64,000 nt of DNA from Candidatus Pelearchaeum maunauluense (lineage in GTDB: Archaea; Thermoproteota; Nitrososphaeria_A; Caldarchaeales; Caldarchaeaceae): assembly GCA_030059675.1 (NCBI GenBank), contig JANVYQ010000002.1:128001-192000 (forward strand), given 5' to 3'. Position 1 is the stretch's first letter. The number at the start of each line of letters is the position of its first letter. Positions 32,091 through 59,723 of the stretch are shown piece after piece. The translations under genes and the position numbers were made by a program. The notes under the pieces were generated by a model. That model worked only from the letters and a program-made list of their open reading frames with translations, was not told the origin of the DNA and did no database searches.

Positions 32091-32909
32091 TCATGCGGTT
32101 GATGTGAGAAGCCTCGCCAGCTCCTCTAGGAGACGGCTGCCTGAAGCTGCAAGTATAGCATAGCGCTCGGTAGAGAGAAGATTTAGATCATCTAAACGAA
32201 TATCCACGCAATCTGCTACTCCATGAGCCTTTTGTAAGATATATGCGGAGGGGACGAAGTCTAAGGGGCGCATTATACGTGGATAAGCTACGAATGCGTG
32301 TAGCTTCCCCTCGGCCACCAGCAAGCTCTCCAGAATAGCAGAACCAAAGAAACGCACATTCTTAACCGAGTTTACCAGCTCTAACCCCTTATCGGGCTGT
32401 TTCTTTAATATTCGGGGGTCAAATGCTATGAAAGACTCGTTGAGAGAAACATCTTCGCATACTCGTATAGGCTTGCCATTTTTTAAGGCATCATCTTCGG
32501 CGGCCTTATATATTTCGCCAGACGAATAATTCACAACAACCGCAGCGATTATGTCGTGATAGGTGCTGCCTTTAGCTATTGCGAGGGCACCAGCAAAGAA
32601 AGGGATTCCAACCATCGCATTATTACTGCCATCAACAGGGTCTATTATGACCAGATAATCGTGGTTATCCTCATTTCCTAGTATCCCACCCTCCTCTGTG
32701 ACAAACGCAACGCTCCCTAGGCGGTCTGATAATGTGCTTATTATGGCGCGCTCGGCTTCTACATCAACGGCAAGTGAAACATCGCCGAAAAACCCGCGCG
32801 AAAGCCGCCGCGAGGCCTCGCCAGAAGCCATAAGCTCCAGAACCCTACGCCTAGCATTAGATAACGCCGCCTCCGCCGCCTCCATTACACGCCGAGTTCC
32901 CAGCTCCAT
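32091..32909 (-). CDS. Inositol monophosphatase/FBPase family
   Basis: TEE, IIDPVDGSNN, RFFGSA, RPLD; start 32909 or 32960. Confidence 0.88.
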   Translation of the reverse strand: MELGTRRVMEAAEAALSNARRRVLELMASGEASRRLSRGFFGDVSLAVDVEAERAIISTLSDRLGSVAFVTEEGGILGNEDNHDYLVIIDPVDGSNNAMVGIPFFAGALAIAKGSTYHDIIAAVVVNYSSGEIYKAAEDDALKNGKPIRVCEDVSLNESFIAFDPRILKKQPDKGLELVNSVKNVRFFGSAILESLLVAEGKLHAFVAYPRIMRPLDFVPSAYILQKAHGVADCVDIRLDDLNLLSTERYAILAASGSRLLEELARLLTSTA

Positions 32910-32956
32910 ACCACCAAAACCACCATTAAACACTAACAGAGAATATAAGAACCCAT

Positions 32957-33217
32957 TCACTTTTTAGAACGCTCAATAACCCTCTTAGCCTTGGCAGTTA
33001 GAGCAGGCCACCTGCGCCTCAGCTCACTCTCCACCATCTTAGCAAGCTCATCACTAATACTATACCTAGGTACTACGCTCTTCCAGTAATTCAAGACGCA
33101 AGCAGCTAAAGGCGAGTAAAGAGCTAGCCTCGGCTGCTCTAATGCTCGTTTAGCTACCTCCCGAAGAACCCTTTCGTCAACCTTGGAGTTCTTACCTCGT
33201 TTCATGGGGTAAACCAT
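32957..33217 (-). CDS. Small basic hypothetical protein, probable RHH-like DNA binder
   Basis: RLALYS strand, helix, PRYSIS turn, helix DELAKMVESELRRRW; TATA-like TTAAAA about 22 bp upstream. Confidence 0.6.
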   Translation of the reverse strand: MVYPMKRGKNSKVDERVLREVAKRALEQPRLALYSPLAACVLNYWKSVVPRYSISDELAKMVESELRRRWPALTAKAKRVIERSKK

Positions 33218-33246
33218 AAACCATCTACATTTTATCTTTTAATCGC

Positions 33247-33582
33247 AGCAAGAGTGCGCAAATTGCATGCGTACGAAAAATCGAATACCAACAACCCCGT
33301 GCAATAATGTTATTTCGCCTCTTATTGTATTTCACCACCAACCGAATAATCAGAGCCATAATAATTCAACACAAATTGAGTAAAACCGTATAAAATCAGC
33401 ACGACAGCCCATGAGGTATGGAGAAAAGCCCAAAATCAGGCTTTCCAAGTATGAAGCGTTACGAATCGGTTGGGGTGTCGGATACTTGCTTCGCTAATAC
33501 AATGACTAATGTAATCTTCCAATATAAAAAGGCGAGATAGCCTAGCTATTGCGTTCGATTTTTCGTATGCATACTCTATGCT
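33247..33582 (+). ncRNA. Candidate structured non-coding element (nested imperfect inverted repeats)
   Basis: Seven nested stems found by eye, four G-U and no A-C pairs on the + strand; no ORF of 60 aa or more; RNA versus DNA function unresolved. Confidence 0.45.
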
Positions 33583-33811
33583 TTTACTGAATCAATTATT
33601 CTCTCCTACGGTTTTATGTTTTATCTAAAAAGGTTTACCTTATACTTTATTACAGCATGATAAAGATTGACGATTATTTTGGAGGATGAAAATAAACTAG
33701 AGCGAGACTTTGTCTCTGCCTTCTAAAGATAACCAACCACGAGCCTGTGGTGATGTTCTTTTTCTTGAAGTTCGGCGTTATGGATATATGGTGGTATTAT
33801 GTATAGTGGAT

Positions 33812-34258
33812 ATGATGCGTTCTGTTCCCGCTTCTGGAGTTTACGAGAAGGGGCGACTGGATTTAGGAGATGTTATAAATGCTGTTTTGGGCTTGGTTGG
33901 TGATGGTAGTGTAGGTGCTGTATCCTTCTTCCTAGGGGTTACTAAAAAAGCTGGACGCGGCAAGAGGGATGTGATGCTTCTCGAGATGGAGTCTTATGTT
34001 GAGCATGCCAACAAGGCTTTATCTAAAATCTGTGAAGAGACTAAAGAGAAATATGGCCTTACCTTCGTCGGAATATGGCACCTAATAGGGAGGTTTGAGC
34101 TAGGTGAGCCGATAGTTCTGGTGGCTGTAGCAGGTGTTTCGCGAGAAGGTGTTTTCCAAGGTCTCCGTGAGGCTGTCGAACGATATAAACGCGAACCAGC
34201 TCTCTTCAAAAAAGAAGTATATGTAGATGGAAGCTATACTTGGCTGGAGGGCGCTTGA
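33812..34258 (+). CDS. moaE: Molybdopterin synthase large subunit
   Basis: GAVSFFLG, EMESY, WHLIG...GE, SR, KREPALFKKE; start 33812/33815 preferred over 33710. Confidence 0.88.
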   Translation: MMRSVPASGVYEKGRLDLGDVINAVLGLVGDGSVGAVSFFLGVTKKAGRGKRDVMLLEMESYVEHANKALSKICEETKEKYGLTFVGIWHLIGRFELGEPIVLVAVAGVSREGVFQGLREAVERYKREPALFKKEVYVDGSYTWLEGA

Positions 34259-34552
34259 ATGAGAGTTGAAACAAGATTTTACGCCTTTCTGAGAGAGGCT
34301 ACTGGTGTTGAGCGTGATTTTTTCGAGCTGGAGGAAAAAGCTACTGTGGGCGACTTGCTTAGAGCTATTGCGGCAAGGTATGAGCGTTTAGCCGGCCTAG
34401 TCTTTGAAGAAGTGCCGCGTCTTAAGCGGGGATTTGCATTAGCTTTGAATGGAGAGAACATAGAGTTGGATAAGATGAATGAAATAAGGCTCAAAGAGGG
34501 GGATACCGTGGTTATACTCCCCCCCATAGCTGGAGGCTTATTTGTTAAATGA
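34259..34552 (+). CDS. moaD: MoaD/ThiS/SAMP ubiquitin-like protein with 4-aa extension after GG
   Basis: FYAFLREATG...LNGENI...LKEGDTVVILPPIAGG-LFVK. Confidence 0.9.
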   Translation: MRVETRFYAFLREATGVERDFFELEEKATVGDLLRAIAARYERLAGLVFEEVPRLKRGFALALNGENIELDKMNEIRLKEGDTVVILPPIAGGLFVK

Positions 34553-54529: not shown

Positions 54530-55027
54530 ATGGATATAAGCAGTAAAATCAGGCGAATACAGGGACTATTCGTGGAAAAGCCAGTTAATTTCTCATGGGT
54601 AAATGATAGAATTGCGGCAAGCGGCTTGCCAGCAGGGATTAAACATCTAACATGGCTTAAAAAACAAGGAATAACGGCTATACTGACGTTGACCGAAAAA
54701 TCCCTAAATCTGGAAGATATACGTCGGCTGGATTTTGAATACCGTCATATCCCGATGCAAGACCTCAAACCTCCAACTGTTGAGAAATTAGTTGAGGCAA
54801 GCACTTTCATTCGTTTGATAACATCAAGAGGTGGCCGTGTTCTTGTTCATTGCGCCGCTGGACTTGGTAGGACAGGAACCGTTTTGGCAGCCTATTTTAT
54901 GTTGGAGAATAATCTCAACCCAGAAGATGCGATAAGGTATGTGAGGCGTATTAGGCCAGGTTCTATTGAGGCTGGTCAAGAGAAGGCTTTATGGGAGCTT
55001 GATAAGCTTAGGAGAGCTGGCTCTTAA
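54530..55027 (+). CDS. Dual-specificity protein phosphatase
   Basis: VHCAAGLGRTG; NFSWV; RPGSIE. Confidence 0.94.
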   Translation: MDISSKIRRIQGLFVEKPVNFSWVNDRIAASGLPAGIKHLTWLKKQGITAILTLTEKSLNLEDIRRLDFEYRHIPMQDLKPPTVEKLVEASTFIRLITSRGGRVLVHCAAGLGRTGTVLAAYFMLENNLNPEDAIRYVRRIRPGSIEAGQEKALWELDKLRRAGS

Positions 55028-57146
55028 TCTGGTCTGCCAGCTTCGGCCCTATAGTTGGTATGCGCGCCAGCTCCTCACGTGATGCGCGGCGTAGGTCGTC
55101 AAGTGTCTTGAAGCCGTGGTCATAGAGGTTTCTAGCCCTAACCCTGCCTATGCCGTGAAGCTTTGTTAAAAGGAGAAGTTCTTGCTTTACGCCATGCTCT
55201 AGTCTTCCTGAAAGAACCTCAAACGCCTTATGATATGGTGTGCGCTCCAAAATACGCGTAAGCTGGGAAGCAGCATAAGATATCCATGCGCATCTTTCTC
55301 TTAAAACTGCCAAATCACCAGGCTCGACTCTAAATCTCTCATACATTTCAGATTCGCTCATCTCCTCAATCCAGGCCTTCATAATATACACAAGCTTCAT
55401 AGACTCCATAAACTCCTCATAACGCTCAGGCTCATCTAGGGGGTCTGGAATGTCAATGAGATAATCCTTATTGCTCTCTATGAATGTCTCCAAAAGAGCC
55501 TCCCCAACTTTAACAGCGGAGATTTGGGGTATGTCGGGAGTTGAGCAGATTACCTGAAGAAGAGTTACGTCATTTATCCCACTAGGCTCCTGGCCTGTTA
55601 GCTCGATTATTTTGACGGCAGTAAGCGGGTCTATATAGAGCTCCGATACCCTCTTTCCTAATCTAGTCGCCACTAGCGTCTCGCCGCTATCTGCTATGAA
55701 TCCCGCCCTCGTTAAGAAATTTAGAGCTTGAATTATCCTCTCATACGCCCCATAGCTTCCGTACTGGAAGGAGAAGAGAGTTTTGGAGAAGAATCGTTTA
55801 AGTTCATCAACGCTACCAACAGCGTTTGACGCCACCAAAGCCAAGACATGAGTCCTAAGATGCCTCTCACTACCCAAGCGAGACCATATACGTTCAGGTT
55901 TCCCCAGTAGATACTTTTCGAAAATGAGACGCTTATCATCCTCTCTTCGCGCAATTGTTATCGCATATCCTACCGCGTCAAAACCAGGCCTCCCTGCCCT
56001 CCCACAAAACTGCTTATACTCTGTGACGCTTATCTGTCTCATCCCCTGCGCTATCTCATAACGCCAAAGTTCGGGTATTATCACGGTTCGTGCAGGGAGA
56101 TTAACTCCAGCCGCGAGTGTGGGTGTTGCTGCAATTATCTTCAGCTTTCTCTCGCGAAATAATTTTTCTACAACTCGTCTATGTTGGTATCCCAGACCTG
56201 CATGATGGAACGAAGCGCCGCGCGAGATTATACGTGCAAGTCGTTCGGTGAAGCTCGACTTCTCGGTTTGCTCGGTTAATTCATGGACAGCTTCTCCGAG
56301 GGCTTGTATGTCTTCTTCTGTTAAGGTGTCAAGACGACGAGCTAAAGCGTCTGCTGCCTTCTCGGCATAAGACTCAGCTCTCTTTCTAGTCATTGCAAAT
56401 ATTATGGCCTGTCCTCCATCAATCACTGTTTTCAACGCTATCGCTATGGCTGGGTCATAGTCCAGCTGCTCAATCTCCATTACACCATCATCTACGAATT
56501 CTATCTCCCCTCCGTAGAATACGCCCTCACGCAACGGGACTGGACGCCATTCCATTTCTATTAGCTCCGAGTCAAGCCATTCGGATATCTCATCAGCGTT
56601 TCGCGCTGTGGCGCTTAAGGCTAGAAACTGGGCCTGTGGGATTGCGTCTATTAATCGTGTGAGCGTCATTTCGAGTGTTGGACCTCTATCAGGCTCTCCA
56701 AGTAGGTGAATCTCATCGGCCACCACCAGTGTAAGGTTGTTAATCCATGAGGCTCTATGGCGTATGAGGCTGTCAGCCTTTTCGTTGGTTGCTATTATAA
56801 CATCATAGTTTGCCAGCCAGGGGTCTGAAGAATCATAATCGCCAGTACTGGCAGCTACGGTGAAGCCGTCTAGTTCTGTAAAGAAACGTCTAAACTCTTC
56901 AAGTTTTTCCGACGCTAGAGCACGTAGTGGTGTTAGGTAGATGCATTTACCGCCATTTCTGAGATGTTGGTACGCCGCCATCATTGCTATCAAGGTCTTA
57001 CCAGACGCGGTGGGCGTGGCCACCATAATATTTCGCCTATCAAGAAGCCCGCGCTCTAGAGCCTCTGCCTGTGGTGGATAAAGAGACGATATACCAAATG
57101 ACCTTAGCCTATCTCTAAGCTCTTCAGGCAGGCTTGCCTTCTCCAA
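55008..57146 (-). CDS. hel308: Ski2-like helicase Hel308/Hjm
   Basis: LYPPQ, PTASGKT, DEIH, LSAT, HHAGL, GRAGR, C-terminal HhH; start TTG 57146 or 57179. Confidence 0.95.
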   Translation of the reverse strand: MEKASLPEELRDRLRSFGISSLYPPQAEALERGLLDRRNIMVATPTASGKTLIAMMAAYQHLRNGGKCIYLTPLRALASEKLEEFRRFFTELDGFTVAASTGDYDSSDPWLANYDVIIATNEKADSLIRHRASWINNLTLVVADEIHLLGEPDRGPTLEMTLTRLIDAIPQAQFLALSATARNADEISEWLDSELIEMEWRPVPLREGVFYGGEIEFVDDGVMEIEQLDYDPAIAIALKTVIDGGQAIIFAMTRKRAESYAEKAADALARRLDTLTEEDIQALGEAVHELTEQTEKSSFTERLARIISRGASFHHAGLGYQHRRVVEKLFRERKLKIIAATPTLAAGVNLPARTVIIPELWRYEIAQGMRQISVTEYKQFCGRAGRPGFDAVGYAITIARREDDKRLIFEKYLLGKPERIWSRLGSERHLRTHVLALVASNAVGSVDELKRFFSKTLFSFQYGSYGAYERIIQALNFLTRAGFIADSGETLVATRLGKRVSELYIDPLTAVKIIELTGQEPSGINDVTLLQVICSTPDIPQISAVKVGEALLETFIESNKDYLIDIPDPLDEPERYEEFMESMKLVYIMKAWIEEMSESEMYERFRVEPGDLAVLRERCAWISYAASQLTRILERTPYHKAFEVLSGRLEHGVKQELLLLTKLHGIGRVRARNLYDHGFKTLDDLRRASREELARIPTIGPKLADQIKSQLS

Positions 57147-57159
57147 GCTGAGAAACGAG

Positions 57160-59181
57160 CTACGCAACCTTATACGCACCAGTTCTTGGGGTATATATGC
57201 GCCCCTCAGTTATAAGACGTGTTAGTATTCTGCTAATCTCAGCTTCGGTGAGTCCTTCTCTGAGAAGCTCGTTTCGCAGTTCTTCATCGGCAGCATATCC
57301 ATGCTCATTCTCAAATCGTTTGATAACGTCTATCACTAGCATCATCTTGTCTCGAACACTCTTGGGCTTGCCTGTCAGTATAACGTCAATATCTGGGCTT
57401 CCAGTTCCTATGTCTATCCCAACCTCAGAGAGGCTTCTCTTCATAAGAGCTATAGCTGCTTGAGCGTCTTCCTCGGTAGCTTGCTCGCGCAGAGCAGCTC
57501 GTGCTCTCGCCTCAGTCATCCTAATCAACGACTCAAACTGCCGTGCAGTAATGCTAACAGTAGAAGTCTTCTCATACATAGAGCGCATCTGAAGATAAAA
57601 CTCCTCAAGCAGCCTCATGGCGGCAGGAGTGAGAACAGGCTCTATACGCTTTGCAAACGCTATATATTTCCTTAAGACTTCAGGCGGAATTGGCGGAGAC
57701 ACTACTGGAGCGCCTATTGAATGAAGCGCCGCTATATGCGACGAGATCTTCTTATCCTGGTCTGGACTGGGCTCATCGCGGAGAACAAAAATTAGGTCAA
57801 AACGCGAAAGTATAGTTATGGGAAGATTAACATTCTCGGTGAAGTTCCTATAGGGGTCGTATCTACCAAGCGCTGGGTTAGCCGCAGCTAATACAGCTGT
57901 TCTAGCATTAAGGGTAGCTACTATACCTCCTTTAGCTATGCTGACAGTTTGTTGCTGCATTGCTTCATGTATGGCCACACGGTCTTCAGGTCTCATCTTG
58001 TCAATTTCATCTATGGCGCATATTCCCATATCTGCCAAGACCATGGCCCCTGCCTCCAGGACCATGCCTCCATTCTTCTCGCGGACAACCGCAGCTGTCA
58101 AGCCAGCGGCAGTAGAACCTCTCCCAGACGTATAGAGCCCACGCGGCGCTATTGACGCTACATACTGCAGAAGCTGGCTTTTAGCAGTACCAGGGTCTCC
58201 TACTAGGAGTATGTTCATCTCACCCCTAACACGCAGCCCATCTCGGAATGTCTTCGTCTTTCCCCCCATGAGAAGGAGGAGAATAGCATCCTTAATGTGC
58301 TCCAAACCGTATATGGAAGGAGCTATAGAGTCTCTCAGCTTAATGTGTATATTCTTGTCGCGGGCCATCTCTCTGAACATACGCTCCTCTTCAGGAGTTA
58401 TCTGAATAGCCTGCGGCTCCTTACTTGCAGCCTCTATGCTGATTGCATCAAGATATAGCTTGAAGGTTTTAAGTGGCTGGTCGCCAGTTCGCTCCTGAGC
58501 TGACTGGACAACACCCACAACTATAACCCTATCACCAGGCCTAACAACATCAACCAAATCACCGCGGGCGCGGACTTCTATTACGCGAGGAAGCTGGCCT
58601 GGAGGCAGGTCTTCTGGCTTCTCCTGAACACCAATAACCTGATAATCCTGATAATGCGACTCCTCTGGAACTAGTTCAAAACTAGGTTTTCTAGCTCTGC
58701 ATGTGGCGTTTGTGCATCTATCAGGCTGTTTTAATCTATTGGCATCTTGTTCAACTCGATAGGTAGTTCCACAATATTTGCATCTAAAAAGCCCAGTCTT
58801 AAGTATGGGTTTTACCACAGAGGCACGCGCCACCAAGCCGTCTATCATTATTAGCTTTCTGAGATGCGCTGCGCGTATTTCTCTAATAGCTGTGACGCTA
58901 GGTATGCCTACTATCCTAGCGTGAAACTCATCAATGCTCGCCGCATACTGGGGGTCTTCTATCTGAAGCTGTTTAAAACAGGCTTTATCAAGAGCTGGTA
59001 TATTACGTAATGGGTTATTTACTAGGTCGTTGGCGAATGTCTCGTCGTATGAGAGGAGGTCTGAGAACTCTACGGGTATACTCTTCTTTCCAGTCAGCGC
59101 TGCTTGCGCGAGTAGTTGTCTATACTTCTCCATCTTGAAGAATGCTACGAGTTTCTCATCAAGCGGTATAGGACGCTCCAT
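57160..59181 (-). CDS. mcm: MCM replicative helicase, no intein
   Basis: Zn finger, GDPGTAKSQ, IDEIDKM, SRFD, C-terminal winged helix. Confidence 0.98.
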   Translation of the reverse strand: MERPIPLDEKLVAFFKMEKYRQLLAQAALTGKKSIPVEFSDLLSYDETFANDLVNNPLRNIPALDKACFKQLQIEDPQYAASIDEFHARIVGIPSVTAIREIRAAHLRKLIMIDGLVARASVVKPILKTGLFRCKYCGTTYRVEQDANRLKQPDRCTNATCRARKPSFELVPEESHYQDYQVIGVQEKPEDLPPGQLPRVIEVRARGDLVDVVRPGDRVIVVGVVQSAQERTGDQPLKTFKLYLDAISIEAASKEPQAIQITPEEERMFREMARDKNIHIKLRDSIAPSIYGLEHIKDAILLLLMGGKTKTFRDGLRVRGEMNILLVGDPGTAKSQLLQYVASIAPRGLYTSGRGSTAAGLTAAVVREKNGGMVLEAGAMVLADMGICAIDEIDKMRPEDRVAIHEAMQQQTVSIAKGGIVATLNARTAVLAAANPALGRYDPYRNFTENVNLPITILSRFDLIFVLRDEPSPDQDKKISSHIAALHSIGAPVVSPPIPPEVLRKYIAFAKRIEPVLTPAAMRLLEEFYLQMRSMYEKTSTVSITARQFESLIRMTEARARAALREQATEEDAQAAIALMKRSLSEVGIDIGTGSPDIDVILTGKPKSVRDKMMLVIDVIKRFENEHGYAADEELRNELLREGLTEAEISRILTRLITEGRIYTPRTGAYKVA

Positions 59182-59195
59182 CCACGCTCACCTTC

Positions 59196-59723
59196 TCAAC
59201 CCATAACACCCCGTTCCCACTCTTCAACAAGACGTGAAACATAGTCGTAGAGAAGCTCCTCTTCAGGGGTTAGTTTCTTAACTACCTCACTCTTCATCTT
59301 CTTAACTGCAAACTGGATAATTTTAGCCATTCTAAGAGTCATAATGTCCCTCACCATATCTCTTATACGTTCATCTCCCGATATGCTGGCTGCTCGTTTA
59401 GATTCCATGTAGAAGTAGCGTGGAAGGGTCTGTAGTTCTAGTGGACTGTTCTTCTCCCGCCATTCCAACTGCATTAACTGTTGCAGTGAGGGGGGCTTAT
59501 CAGCCCATTCTGCCACATTCATCTCCACGAGACGCTGGGCTAGCCACTGCTTGACGTATATGATGCTACCCTTCTTGACGTCTTCAAAAACCTGGCCCGA
59601 GACTATTAGTTTGGGGATATCGCGTGTGATGGTTATTCTTGTTGTTGAGTTTAGGTATTCCAGCCTTAGTTCCTCAAGCCTATCCCTTAAGCCTGTTGCC
59701 AGTAGGTCTTCAGAGCGTAACAT
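59196..59723 (-). CDS. gins23: GINS subunit (Gins23/Psf2-like)
   Basis: WLA..L, LQTLPRYFY, R.AKI, LTPEE; directly upstream of mcm. Confidence 0.85.
   Translation of the reverse strand: MLRSEDLLATGLRDRLEELRLEYLNSTTRITITRDIPKLIVSGQVFEDVKKGSIIYVKQWLAQRLVEMNVAEWADKPPSLQQLMQLEWREKNSPLELQTLPRYFYMESKRAASISGDERIRDMVRDIMTLRMAKIIQFAVKKMKSEVVKKLTPEEELLYDYVSRLVEEWERGVMG

Follow-up and report, generated by a model that had tools for sequence, protein, structure and literature searches.

A class-wide SegB-like gene of Caldarchaeales is linked to a unique non-coding locus, a candidate segS-like nucleoprotein site

In Sulfolobales, the palindromic sites bound by the ribbon-helix-helix (RHH) protein SegB lie directly ahead of the operon that encodes it (PMC12284271, PMC8682754, PMC12139799). 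One of these reports, a survey (PMC12139799), states that every SegB kept in it adjoins a ParA-like ATPase, that within Thermoproteota SegB is limited to Sulfolobaceae, and that SegB carries a signature motif, (K/R)(D/N)P(K/R)I(G/T)(V/L)WS(Y/P)(P/E). Archaeal dif sites provide another point of reference; according to PMC2958812, they are unique, intergenic, located ~180 degrees from oriC and flanked by inverted repeats as well as by conserved sequences, the same paper reporting Thaumarchaea to be without xerA. Here we analyse an intergenic element in a 64,000-nt stretch of the Candidatus Pelearchaeum maunauluense genome (assembly GCA_030059675.1, contig JANVYQ010000002.1, positions 128,001 to 192,000; hereafter the window, the coordinates of which are used throughout). 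The element, at 33,247-33,582, lies between an RHH-like gene and moaE-moaD, and an initial annotation, made from the sequence alone, had described it as a rod-like structure of seven nested stems, potentially a new non-coding RNA (ncRNA), a regulator of molybdenum cofactor (Moco) genes, an RNA partner of the RHH-like protein or a DNA signal.

With an estimated probability of about 50%, we interpret this element as a DNA-level, cis-acting, segS-like nucleoprotein site built of repeated protein-binding sites, and not as a rod RNA. The observations established here concern the homology of the neighbouring protein, the architecture, uniqueness and conservation of the sites, their linkage to the gene and, in one complete genome, a position opposite the replication origin.

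The SegB-like gene and its conserved neighbouring module

The gene to the left of the element (32957..33205, minus strand) probably starts at the ATG at 33205-33203 and thus encodes 82 amino acids (aa), the list of open reading frames (ORFs) extending it to 33217. Its RHH-like product is a distant homolog of SegB, the Sulfolobus RHH centromere-binding protein, as follows from both sequence and structure comparisons. SegB is the sole match in a PDB search, over the full length, with the single sequence (E 0.0038 and 0.0054), and again the sole match with a profile of 20 homologs (E 5.3e-7 and 1.2e-6). For Foldseek, an alignment-based AlphaFold2 model was used (mean predicted local distance difference test score, pLDDT, 83.1), the model from the single sequence being poor (pLDDT 58.7); the top three matches are SegB chains, with probabilities of 0.99-1.00 and template modelling (TM) scores of 0.59-0.67 at E-values of merely 0.05-0.13. 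The protein falls into no Pfam or NCBIfam family. A QPRLAFYSP stretch, non-helical in the model and aligned with the SegB signature motif, is nearly invariant across the class and represents the predicted DNA-reading ribbon. The gene is present in one copy per genome in 72 of the 76 genomes of the sampled order (Caldarchaeales/"Aigarchaeota", which makes up the whole class in the genome set used) and in all 43 high-quality ones; the gene downstream of it belongs to the inositol-monophosphatase family. A full-text search of the literature on SegB in Aigarchaeota, judged by titles and abstract starts and not extended to other names, yielded no description of this locus.

The whole element is found by DNA search solely in a second genome of the same genus (G001; 78% identity, 83% in the alignment), and outside the genus such a search detects just a 42-46-nt core. 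We describe conservation by the regions beside the SegB-like gene, gathered from 70 genomes and scanned with an nhmmer profile of the core (E<0.001). In 46 of these 70 loci, comprising all 18 genomes of family f1 and, for the remainder, genomes of family f4, the core precedes the gene by 220-340 nt, on the strand that it occupies here. Family f2 carries the module in inverted orientation and nearer to the gene (8/8 inspected sequences, with weak minus-strand profile matches in five), and in family f3 the core is located ~90 nt past the 3' end of the gene, one outer palindrome still being upstream (two of the three genomes of genus g6). The locus is syntenic across genera, and the SegB-like gene is the sole constant neighbour of the element across the four families, so that the link to the divergent RHH-like gene proposed by the initial annotation turns out to be real and strong.

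The genes on the far side, on the other hand, vary between MoaE, AdoMet decarboxylase, an EF-2-like GTPase, an ABC ATPase, Mrp/NUBPL and PurA (adenylosuccinate synthetase), MoaE being the neighbour in genera g1 and g4 only. It is thus the SegB-like gene, rather than the Moco genes, that the element accompanies, and the earlier suggestion of a cis-regulator of the Moco genes is rejected, given that the far-side gene differs outside these two genera. In the window, moaE and moaD (33710..34552, plus strand; Pfam MoaE E 6e-23, ThiS E 3.5e-17) lie outside the element.

The complete module spans 33206-33639 (~430 bp) and occurs once per chromosome. From the outside inward, it consists of inverted promoter-like borders with GGTTTAC-type motifs, outer palindromes (TTCGA-N4-TCGAA type), inner palindromes and the core; the core and both palindrome types are confined to this locus in the 1.79-Mb genome. 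The core with its flanks occupies 33459..33507 on the plus strand, including AATCGGTTGGGGTGTCGGAT at 33464-33483; the core itself is an asymmetric sequence of ~35 nt with the pattern AATCGG..GGGG..TCGGAC, unique in the genome. Of the inner palindromes, the upstream one, HP-up (33363..33381, AATTCAA-CACAA-TTGAGT), belongs to the TAATTCAAT-N4-ATTGAATTA class, is likewise unique in the genome and precedes the core at a fixed distance of ~85-112 nt in most f1 and f4 genomes, and the downstream one (HP-down, alignment columns 222-243) is represented here by a degenerate copy at 33495..33516 (TAATACAAT...ATGTAATC). Both align without gaps or indels across 45 genomes of two families, the intervening parts varying in length and sequence.

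The outer sites are located at 33267..33285 (with TACGA-AAAA-TCGAA at 33272-33285) and 33554..33572 (with TTCGA-TTTT-TCGTA at 33554-33567), the left one being the 5' arm and the right one the 3' arm of a 19-bp stem reported by the initial annotation, which these two sites together produce. The pattern TWCGA-W4-TCGWA has just two occurrences in the entire genome, both in the element. In families f1 and f3 the outer site reads TGTTCGA-AAAA-TCGAACA, in the same place upstream of the gene, and in the sister genus the right outer site is often half-degenerate (e.g., TGTTCGAAAAATAAAACA). The spacers of the outer palindromes contain only A and T; together with the indel-free inner palindromes, this is typical of DNA sites bound by protein dimers.

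The left border (33206..33245), which is the promoter region of the SegB-like gene, contains GGTAAACC at 33208-33215, ATAAACC and an A/T-rich, TATA-like tract at 33229-33242; it is an inverted copy of the right border and is 100% conserved in G001. The right border (33610..33639; GGTTTTATGTTTTATCTAAAAAGGTTTACC, with GGTTTACC at 33632-33639) mirrors it and precedes moaE. A GGTWWWAC-type motif within 120 nt of the gene start is found in 52 of 69 genomes vs. 4 of 69 in a control stretch, whereas the border octamer is not enriched genome-wide (19 and 25 copies vs. ~27 expected) and, hence, does not act as a general promoter word of the genome. A convergent AdoMet decarboxylase gene ends with its stop codon directly at the right-border motif in the sister genus, where this motif is thus not simply the promoter of a downstream gene.

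As a separate observation, three assemblies (G008, C20/L014 and C25/L011; G052, L041; G043, L090) break, or carry an N-gap with duplicated flanks, within or next to the ~400-bp element, and in G008 two contig ends overlap across the core. These breaks could reflect the inverted repeats themselves, strain heterogeneity or an invertible segment.

Repeated DNA sites versus RNA helices

The seven nested stems of the initial annotation are all present in the window, two of them via a one-base bulge. The five equal-length stems comprise the 19-bp stem 33267-85/33554-72 (18 Watson-Crick pairs and one G-U), 33301-06/33547-52 (six Watson-Crick pairs), 33309-20/33530-41 (ten and two G-U), 33322-31/33496-505 (nine and one G-U) and the inner stem 33425-30/33439-44 (six Watson-Crick pairs). 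The bulge is required in 33247-55/33573-82 and 33333-45/33466-77, the arms of which differ in length; these stems reach five and nine Watson-Crick pairs, respectively, in the best register. A repeat search reports the outer arms as a 28-nt inverted repeat (82%). The TATA-like tract in front of the element and the T-runs downstream of it, both pointed out previously, are found in the sequence, and the reported AT-richness holds as well (40% G+C vs. 48.5% for the window).

The comparison with dinucleotide shuffles, which had been proposed as a check, comes out in favour of a nonrandom fold: for 33240-33590, RNAfold yields -95.8 kcal/mol on the plus strand (z -5.05) and -103.9 kcal/mol on the minus strand (z -4.26), none of 100 shuffles being as stable in either case. 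The fold of the source copy is above chance, yet without strand specificity, and this pattern, with both strands folding well, is expected from a set of DNA inverted repeats. The rod-like appearance in this genome is accounted for by the nesting of these repeats.

The rod fold is not conserved. The same-genus homolog has a z-score of -1.16, with 15 of 100 shuffles equally stable, and for 13 other homologs the values range from -0.8 to -3.9 on the plus strand and from +0.6 to -7.7 on the minus strand (with only 15 shuffles each). RNAalifold applied to 12 sister-genus sequences gives -9.3 kcal/mol and 18 pairs, i.e., almost no consensus structure. No conserved complement to the core was detected, the long-range helix being specific to this genus and at chance level elsewhere; nor does a third hairpin between the upstream palindrome and the core exceed chance (mean best stem 4.3 vs. 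4.0 bp, with at least 6 bp in 7 of 45 genomes). In this genus alone, the 5' half of the core (33463-33477) has a complement in a C/A-rich segment at 33333-33347 (ACCACCAACCGA): no such partner for the core was found in the other 44 genomes of the alignment, and in G001 both pairing segments are identical and, hence, carry no covariation information. As for coding potential, among small ORFs in the element (44 aa on the minus and 40 aa on the plus strand), the ATG of the 40-aa one appears lost in G001, judging from the alignment.

In the 45-genome alignment, 77.4% of cells are paired when the arms of the inner palindromes are read as local hairpins (covariation score 0.291), and 74.9% (0.239) under a rival long-range scheme for these arms that excludes the first; both schemes exceed all 500 shuffles and the slid controls. 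All four inner half-sites share one common consensus, TAATTCAAT. Within-genome agreement at variable positions amounts to 0.64 and 0.573 for arms that are able to pair, 0.569 and 0.578 for same-sense comparisons and 0.582 and 0.533 for cross comparisons, as compared to 0.43-0.455 in shuffled genomes. Equal agreement in pairable and unpairable arms points to a genome-specific half-site present in four copies and not to helix-specific covariation. The mismatches provide a further indication. The initial annotation had noted that all non-Watson-Crick pairs are G-U and took this to favour a single-stranded plus-strand structure; this is correct for the equal-length stems of this genome (four G-U, no A-C) but does not extend to the 45 genomes, where 66 G-U and 59 A-C mismatches are counted on the plus strand among 810 cells. 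Moreover, the mismatches of the upstream palindrome are mostly A-C and those of the downstream palindrome mostly G-U, with the result that neither strand makes both helices good. Taken together, equal half-site agreement and balanced mismatches argue for repeated DNA sites rather than RNA helices, and the interpretation as a rod-like ncRNA is not supported, its fold not being conserved and the apparent covariation being equally present in arms unable to pair.

Several known classes of elements were considered and dismissed. RNAs of the signal recognition particle (SRP) and RNase P, which the initial annotation had already discounted, are indeed encoded on other contigs (C12:18081-18397, 124.7 bits, and C14:7760-8053, 142.3 bits, respectively), and Rfam, the Moco riboswitch included, gives no match at E<=10 in 32900-33900 and none at E<=1 in six homologous loci. 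A miniature inverted-repeat transposable element (MITE), another of the earlier suggestions, is contradicted by a single full-length copy in the 21-contig genome, in which other matches are limited to 29 nt or less with E-values of at least 0.03, and by the synteny of the locus across genera.

A proposed mechanism and the rival explanations

As to which protein binds which site and what the resulting complex does, we infer the following sequence of events. Dimers of the adjacent SegB-like protein would bind a part of the array, the likeliest targets being its class-wide invariant pieces (the core and the border motifs), because the QPRLAFYSP ribbon is almost invariant across the class. Such binding would repress the SegB-like gene's own promoter inside the left border, and a higher-order complex might then assemble and mark a single point of the chromosome, possibly opposite the origin, in a manner resembling SegB at segS. 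Among the alternatives listed by the initial annotation, a dyad-symmetric DNA signal tied to the RHH-like protein is the nearest to this proposal; its link to the gene is borne out, and the binding is predicted.

A number of observations weigh against this proposal. The combination of family-specific palindromes with a near-invariant ribbon is an odd fit and suggests that a second protein binds some of the sites. The sites are unlike the Sulfolobus motif TCTAGA-S-TCTAGA. No ParA/SegA-like gene is present among the 72 ORFs of the window, and a genome-wide search with PF13614 and PF01656 revealed no recognisable small ATPase of the ParA/SegA type; by ORF size and motifs, the matching frames look ArsA/Get3-like and Mrp-like, larger frames that also matched being left aside. 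This sets the locus apart from every SegB of the survey. In both borders a TATA-like tract is directed into the element, and in many genomes the downstream palindrome is followed by T-runs, making transcription across the element plausible. Finally, arm agreement in the upstream palindrome is slightly higher than in non-pairing comparisons (0.64 vs. ~0.57) and the first inner palindrome displays many double changes (e.g., UA 15 and CG 14 at one pair), which is compatible with some hairpin or cruciform constraint, or RNA, at this site. With respect to ATPases, we also note that in two genera of family f4 (G055, L044:2-1114; G037, L127:2208-3230) the far-side gene encodes an Mrp/NUBPL-type P-loop NTPase with an FeS_assembly_P domain (Pfam "ParA", PF10609, E 1e-98), the only ParA-superfamily neighbour of the element seen and probably an Fe-S carrier rather than a partition ATPase.

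A first alternative is an ncRNA gene of ~250-330 nt on the plus strand, with a transcript that would run from the TATA-like tract at 33229-33242 to the T-runs past 33582 and present a single-stranded core between conserved hairpins, acting either with the SegB-like protein or on its own. The strong fold of the window copy, a TATA-like tract ~25-35 nt ahead of the left outer palindrome, hairpin-like palindromes at conserved positions with double changes at several pairs above shuffled and slid controls, as well as variable-length linkers between conserved blocks and a free orientation to the gene, as would suit an independent gene, are all consistent with this possibility. Nevertheless, we consider it unlikely in view of the lack of a conserved fold, of a pairing partner for the core and of any Rfam match here or in the homologous loci, of agreement just as high in arms unable to pair, of the opposite mismatch types in the two palindromes, and of several sister-genus members in which the upstream palindrome is degenerate or the outer sites are half-degenerate. 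RHH proteins commonly autoregulate, and the locus could accordingly be reduced to a transcriptional control region, a set of operators through which one or more regulators would act on the divergent promoters of the SegB-like gene and of its far-side neighbour, devoid of any chromosome-level role; the overlap of the left border with the promoter of the SegB-like gene fits this view, as does the outer palindrome that remains promoter-proximal in family f3 even though the core has moved across the gene. We regard it as improbable, however, that operators would explain the locus in full, since ~430 bp, at least five site clusters and a 35-nt invariant core exceed their needs, the core stays linked even when located downstream of the gene, and the right border in the sister genus faces the 3' end of a convergent gene, where there is no promoter.

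The remaining alternatives concern the position of the locus on the chromosome. A canonical origin, as once suggested for the element, is ruled out by its identification elsewhere: two inverted origin recognition box (ORB) elements of the GTTCCATAGGAAATGAAGGGGT type, 134 nt apart, adjoin the best orc1/cdc6 gene upstream on contig C2 (~267,789-267,985; L049:236-433), outside the window, the same arrangement being found in G006 and a single ORB match near orc1 in G018 and G049; the element itself has no ORB, and no Orc1-like gene occurs among the window ORFs. In G006, the only complete genome (1,680,938 bp), the ORB elements (695,612 and 695,782) and the core (1,540,304) are 50.2% of the circle apart. 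The separation amounts to 47.4-50.5% of the genome in G018 (the range arising from a rounded genome size), and in five further genomes the main orc1/cdc6 is on a contig other than that of the locus; these few genomes hint at a terminus-proximal position. This raises the idea of a replication-terminus landmark for dimer resolution, fork arrest or terminus organisation, comparable to dif, Ter or matS; the SegB-like protein would be its accessory or organiser, the inner palindromes (9-bp arms, 4-6-bp spacer) would be of the recombinase type and the core would be a polar element. The unique, intergenic character of archaeal dif and its conserved flanks (PMC2958812) are in line with this idea. Such a landmark is, in our estimate, rather improbable: G049 (88% complete) shows a separation of just 34-39%, the 180-degree position relies on a single complete genome, and GC and AT skews on contigs C9, C2, C14 and C16 show no extremum, not even at the known origin. 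PF00589 tyrosine recombinases are found in only 16 of the 43 high-quality genomes, and the sole one of this genome (C2:279,259-280,350; L143:1303-2397), ~11 kb from the origin and outside the window, is XerA-like according to its PDB match (E 7e-16), and its homologs are limited to 11 of 43 genomes, a patchy distribution that looks like that of a mobile-element integrase rather than a housekeeping Xer and weakens a classical Xer/dif system. These homologs are 52-58% identical in distant families, and none was found in the sister species. We know of no archaeal Ter or matS system. A second origin independent of ORB and Orc1 could, in turn, draw on the dyad symmetry, A/T-rich borders and uniqueness of the element, on its position opposite oriC1 in G006, on a second Cdc6-like gene 36 kb away in this genome and on the C/A- to G/T-rich switch across the core, an origin-like polarity. 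The latter, reported by the initial annotation for the flanks as a change from AC-rich to GT-rich, is confirmed in several genera but is absent from two large ones, and left-side GC skew is negative in just 58% of 45 genomes. As the element also lacks an ORB, a neighbouring initiator gene and an A/T-rich centre for unwinding, its middle being G+C-rich in many genomes, and as the second Cdc6 gene shows no synteny with it, this is a highly improbable explanation. The gene in question corresponds to a weaker Cdc6_C match at C9:197,213-197,446, in a 173-aa open frame 5 kb past the window; other genomes do not keep this paralog in synteny with the element, and an ORB pattern gave no match beside its G006 copy. 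Other replication-related genes of the window, at 55008-59723 on the minus strand, encode a Hel308-like helicase (55008-57179), MCM (57160-59181) and a GINS/Sld5-like protein (59196-59723).

Implications and comparison with known systems

Overall, a distant SegB-like protein is found class-wide in this lineage of Nitrososphaerota; a ParA partner for it is not recognisable, and its gene is always accompanied by a single, unique non-coding locus. Chromosome segregation and termination in archaea outside Sulfolobales are poorly understood, and the locus offers a concrete candidate, open to testing, for a site with a centromere-like or terminus-associated role in archaea that have no cultured model, the gene and the element forming a defined candidate protein-DNA pair for biochemistry. 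A bolder extension of the DNA-site proposal, quite unlikely in our judgement, is that an orphan SegB-type protein assembled on the core-plus-palindrome array marks the point opposite the origin with neither ParA nor Xer; if true, this would be a terminus organiser, or a chromosome-resolution or fork-fusion site, of a kind undescribed in archaea. From a methodological perspective, this analysis illustrates how a convincing "rod" in a single genome can arise from nested binding-site palindromes.

When compared with rod RNAs such as archaeal SRP RNA, the element shares a similar length and a long imperfect hairpin in one genome; it differs in that this rod is not conserved and has no Rfam match, while the genuine SRP and RNase P RNAs are encoded elsewhere. 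Like dif, the element is a unique and conserved intergenic sequence in which short inverted arms enclose a short spacer; its flanks are conserved, inverted repeats lie on either side, and in the complete genome it is located ~180 degrees from oriC. At the same time, the class is without a universal tyrosine recombinase, two to three palindromes are present here instead of one, their arms are 9 bp and not 11 bp long, and the core, which is conserved best, lacks inverted-repeat symmetry.

With the SegB-segS system, the locus has in common a small RHH protein of the SegB family whose N-terminal tail is basic, as well as palindromes, here putative protein-binding sites, immediately upstream of its own gene, several of which are clustered in the intergenic region. 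The differences are also substantial: SegA/ParA is neither adjacent to the gene nor recognised in the genome, the ribbon reads QPRLAFYSP where the signature in the survey has (K/R)(D/N)P(K/R)I(G/T)(V/L)WS(Y/P)(P/E), the site sequences are unrelated to those of segS, they are confined to one locus as opposed to dozens of sites spread in the Sulfolobales system, and the long asymmetric core has no segS counterpart. In its layout, the element also resembles the RHH-bound arrays of plasmids (ParR-parC, omega heptads, ParG). Those arrays use a single repeated unit and a partner NTPase, whereas at least three site types and a unique core, with no partner found, are combined here; in both cases, however, direct or inverted short repeats extend over a few hundred bp beside an RHH gene, and, like these arrays, the element would serve both autoregulation and the assembly of a partition complex.

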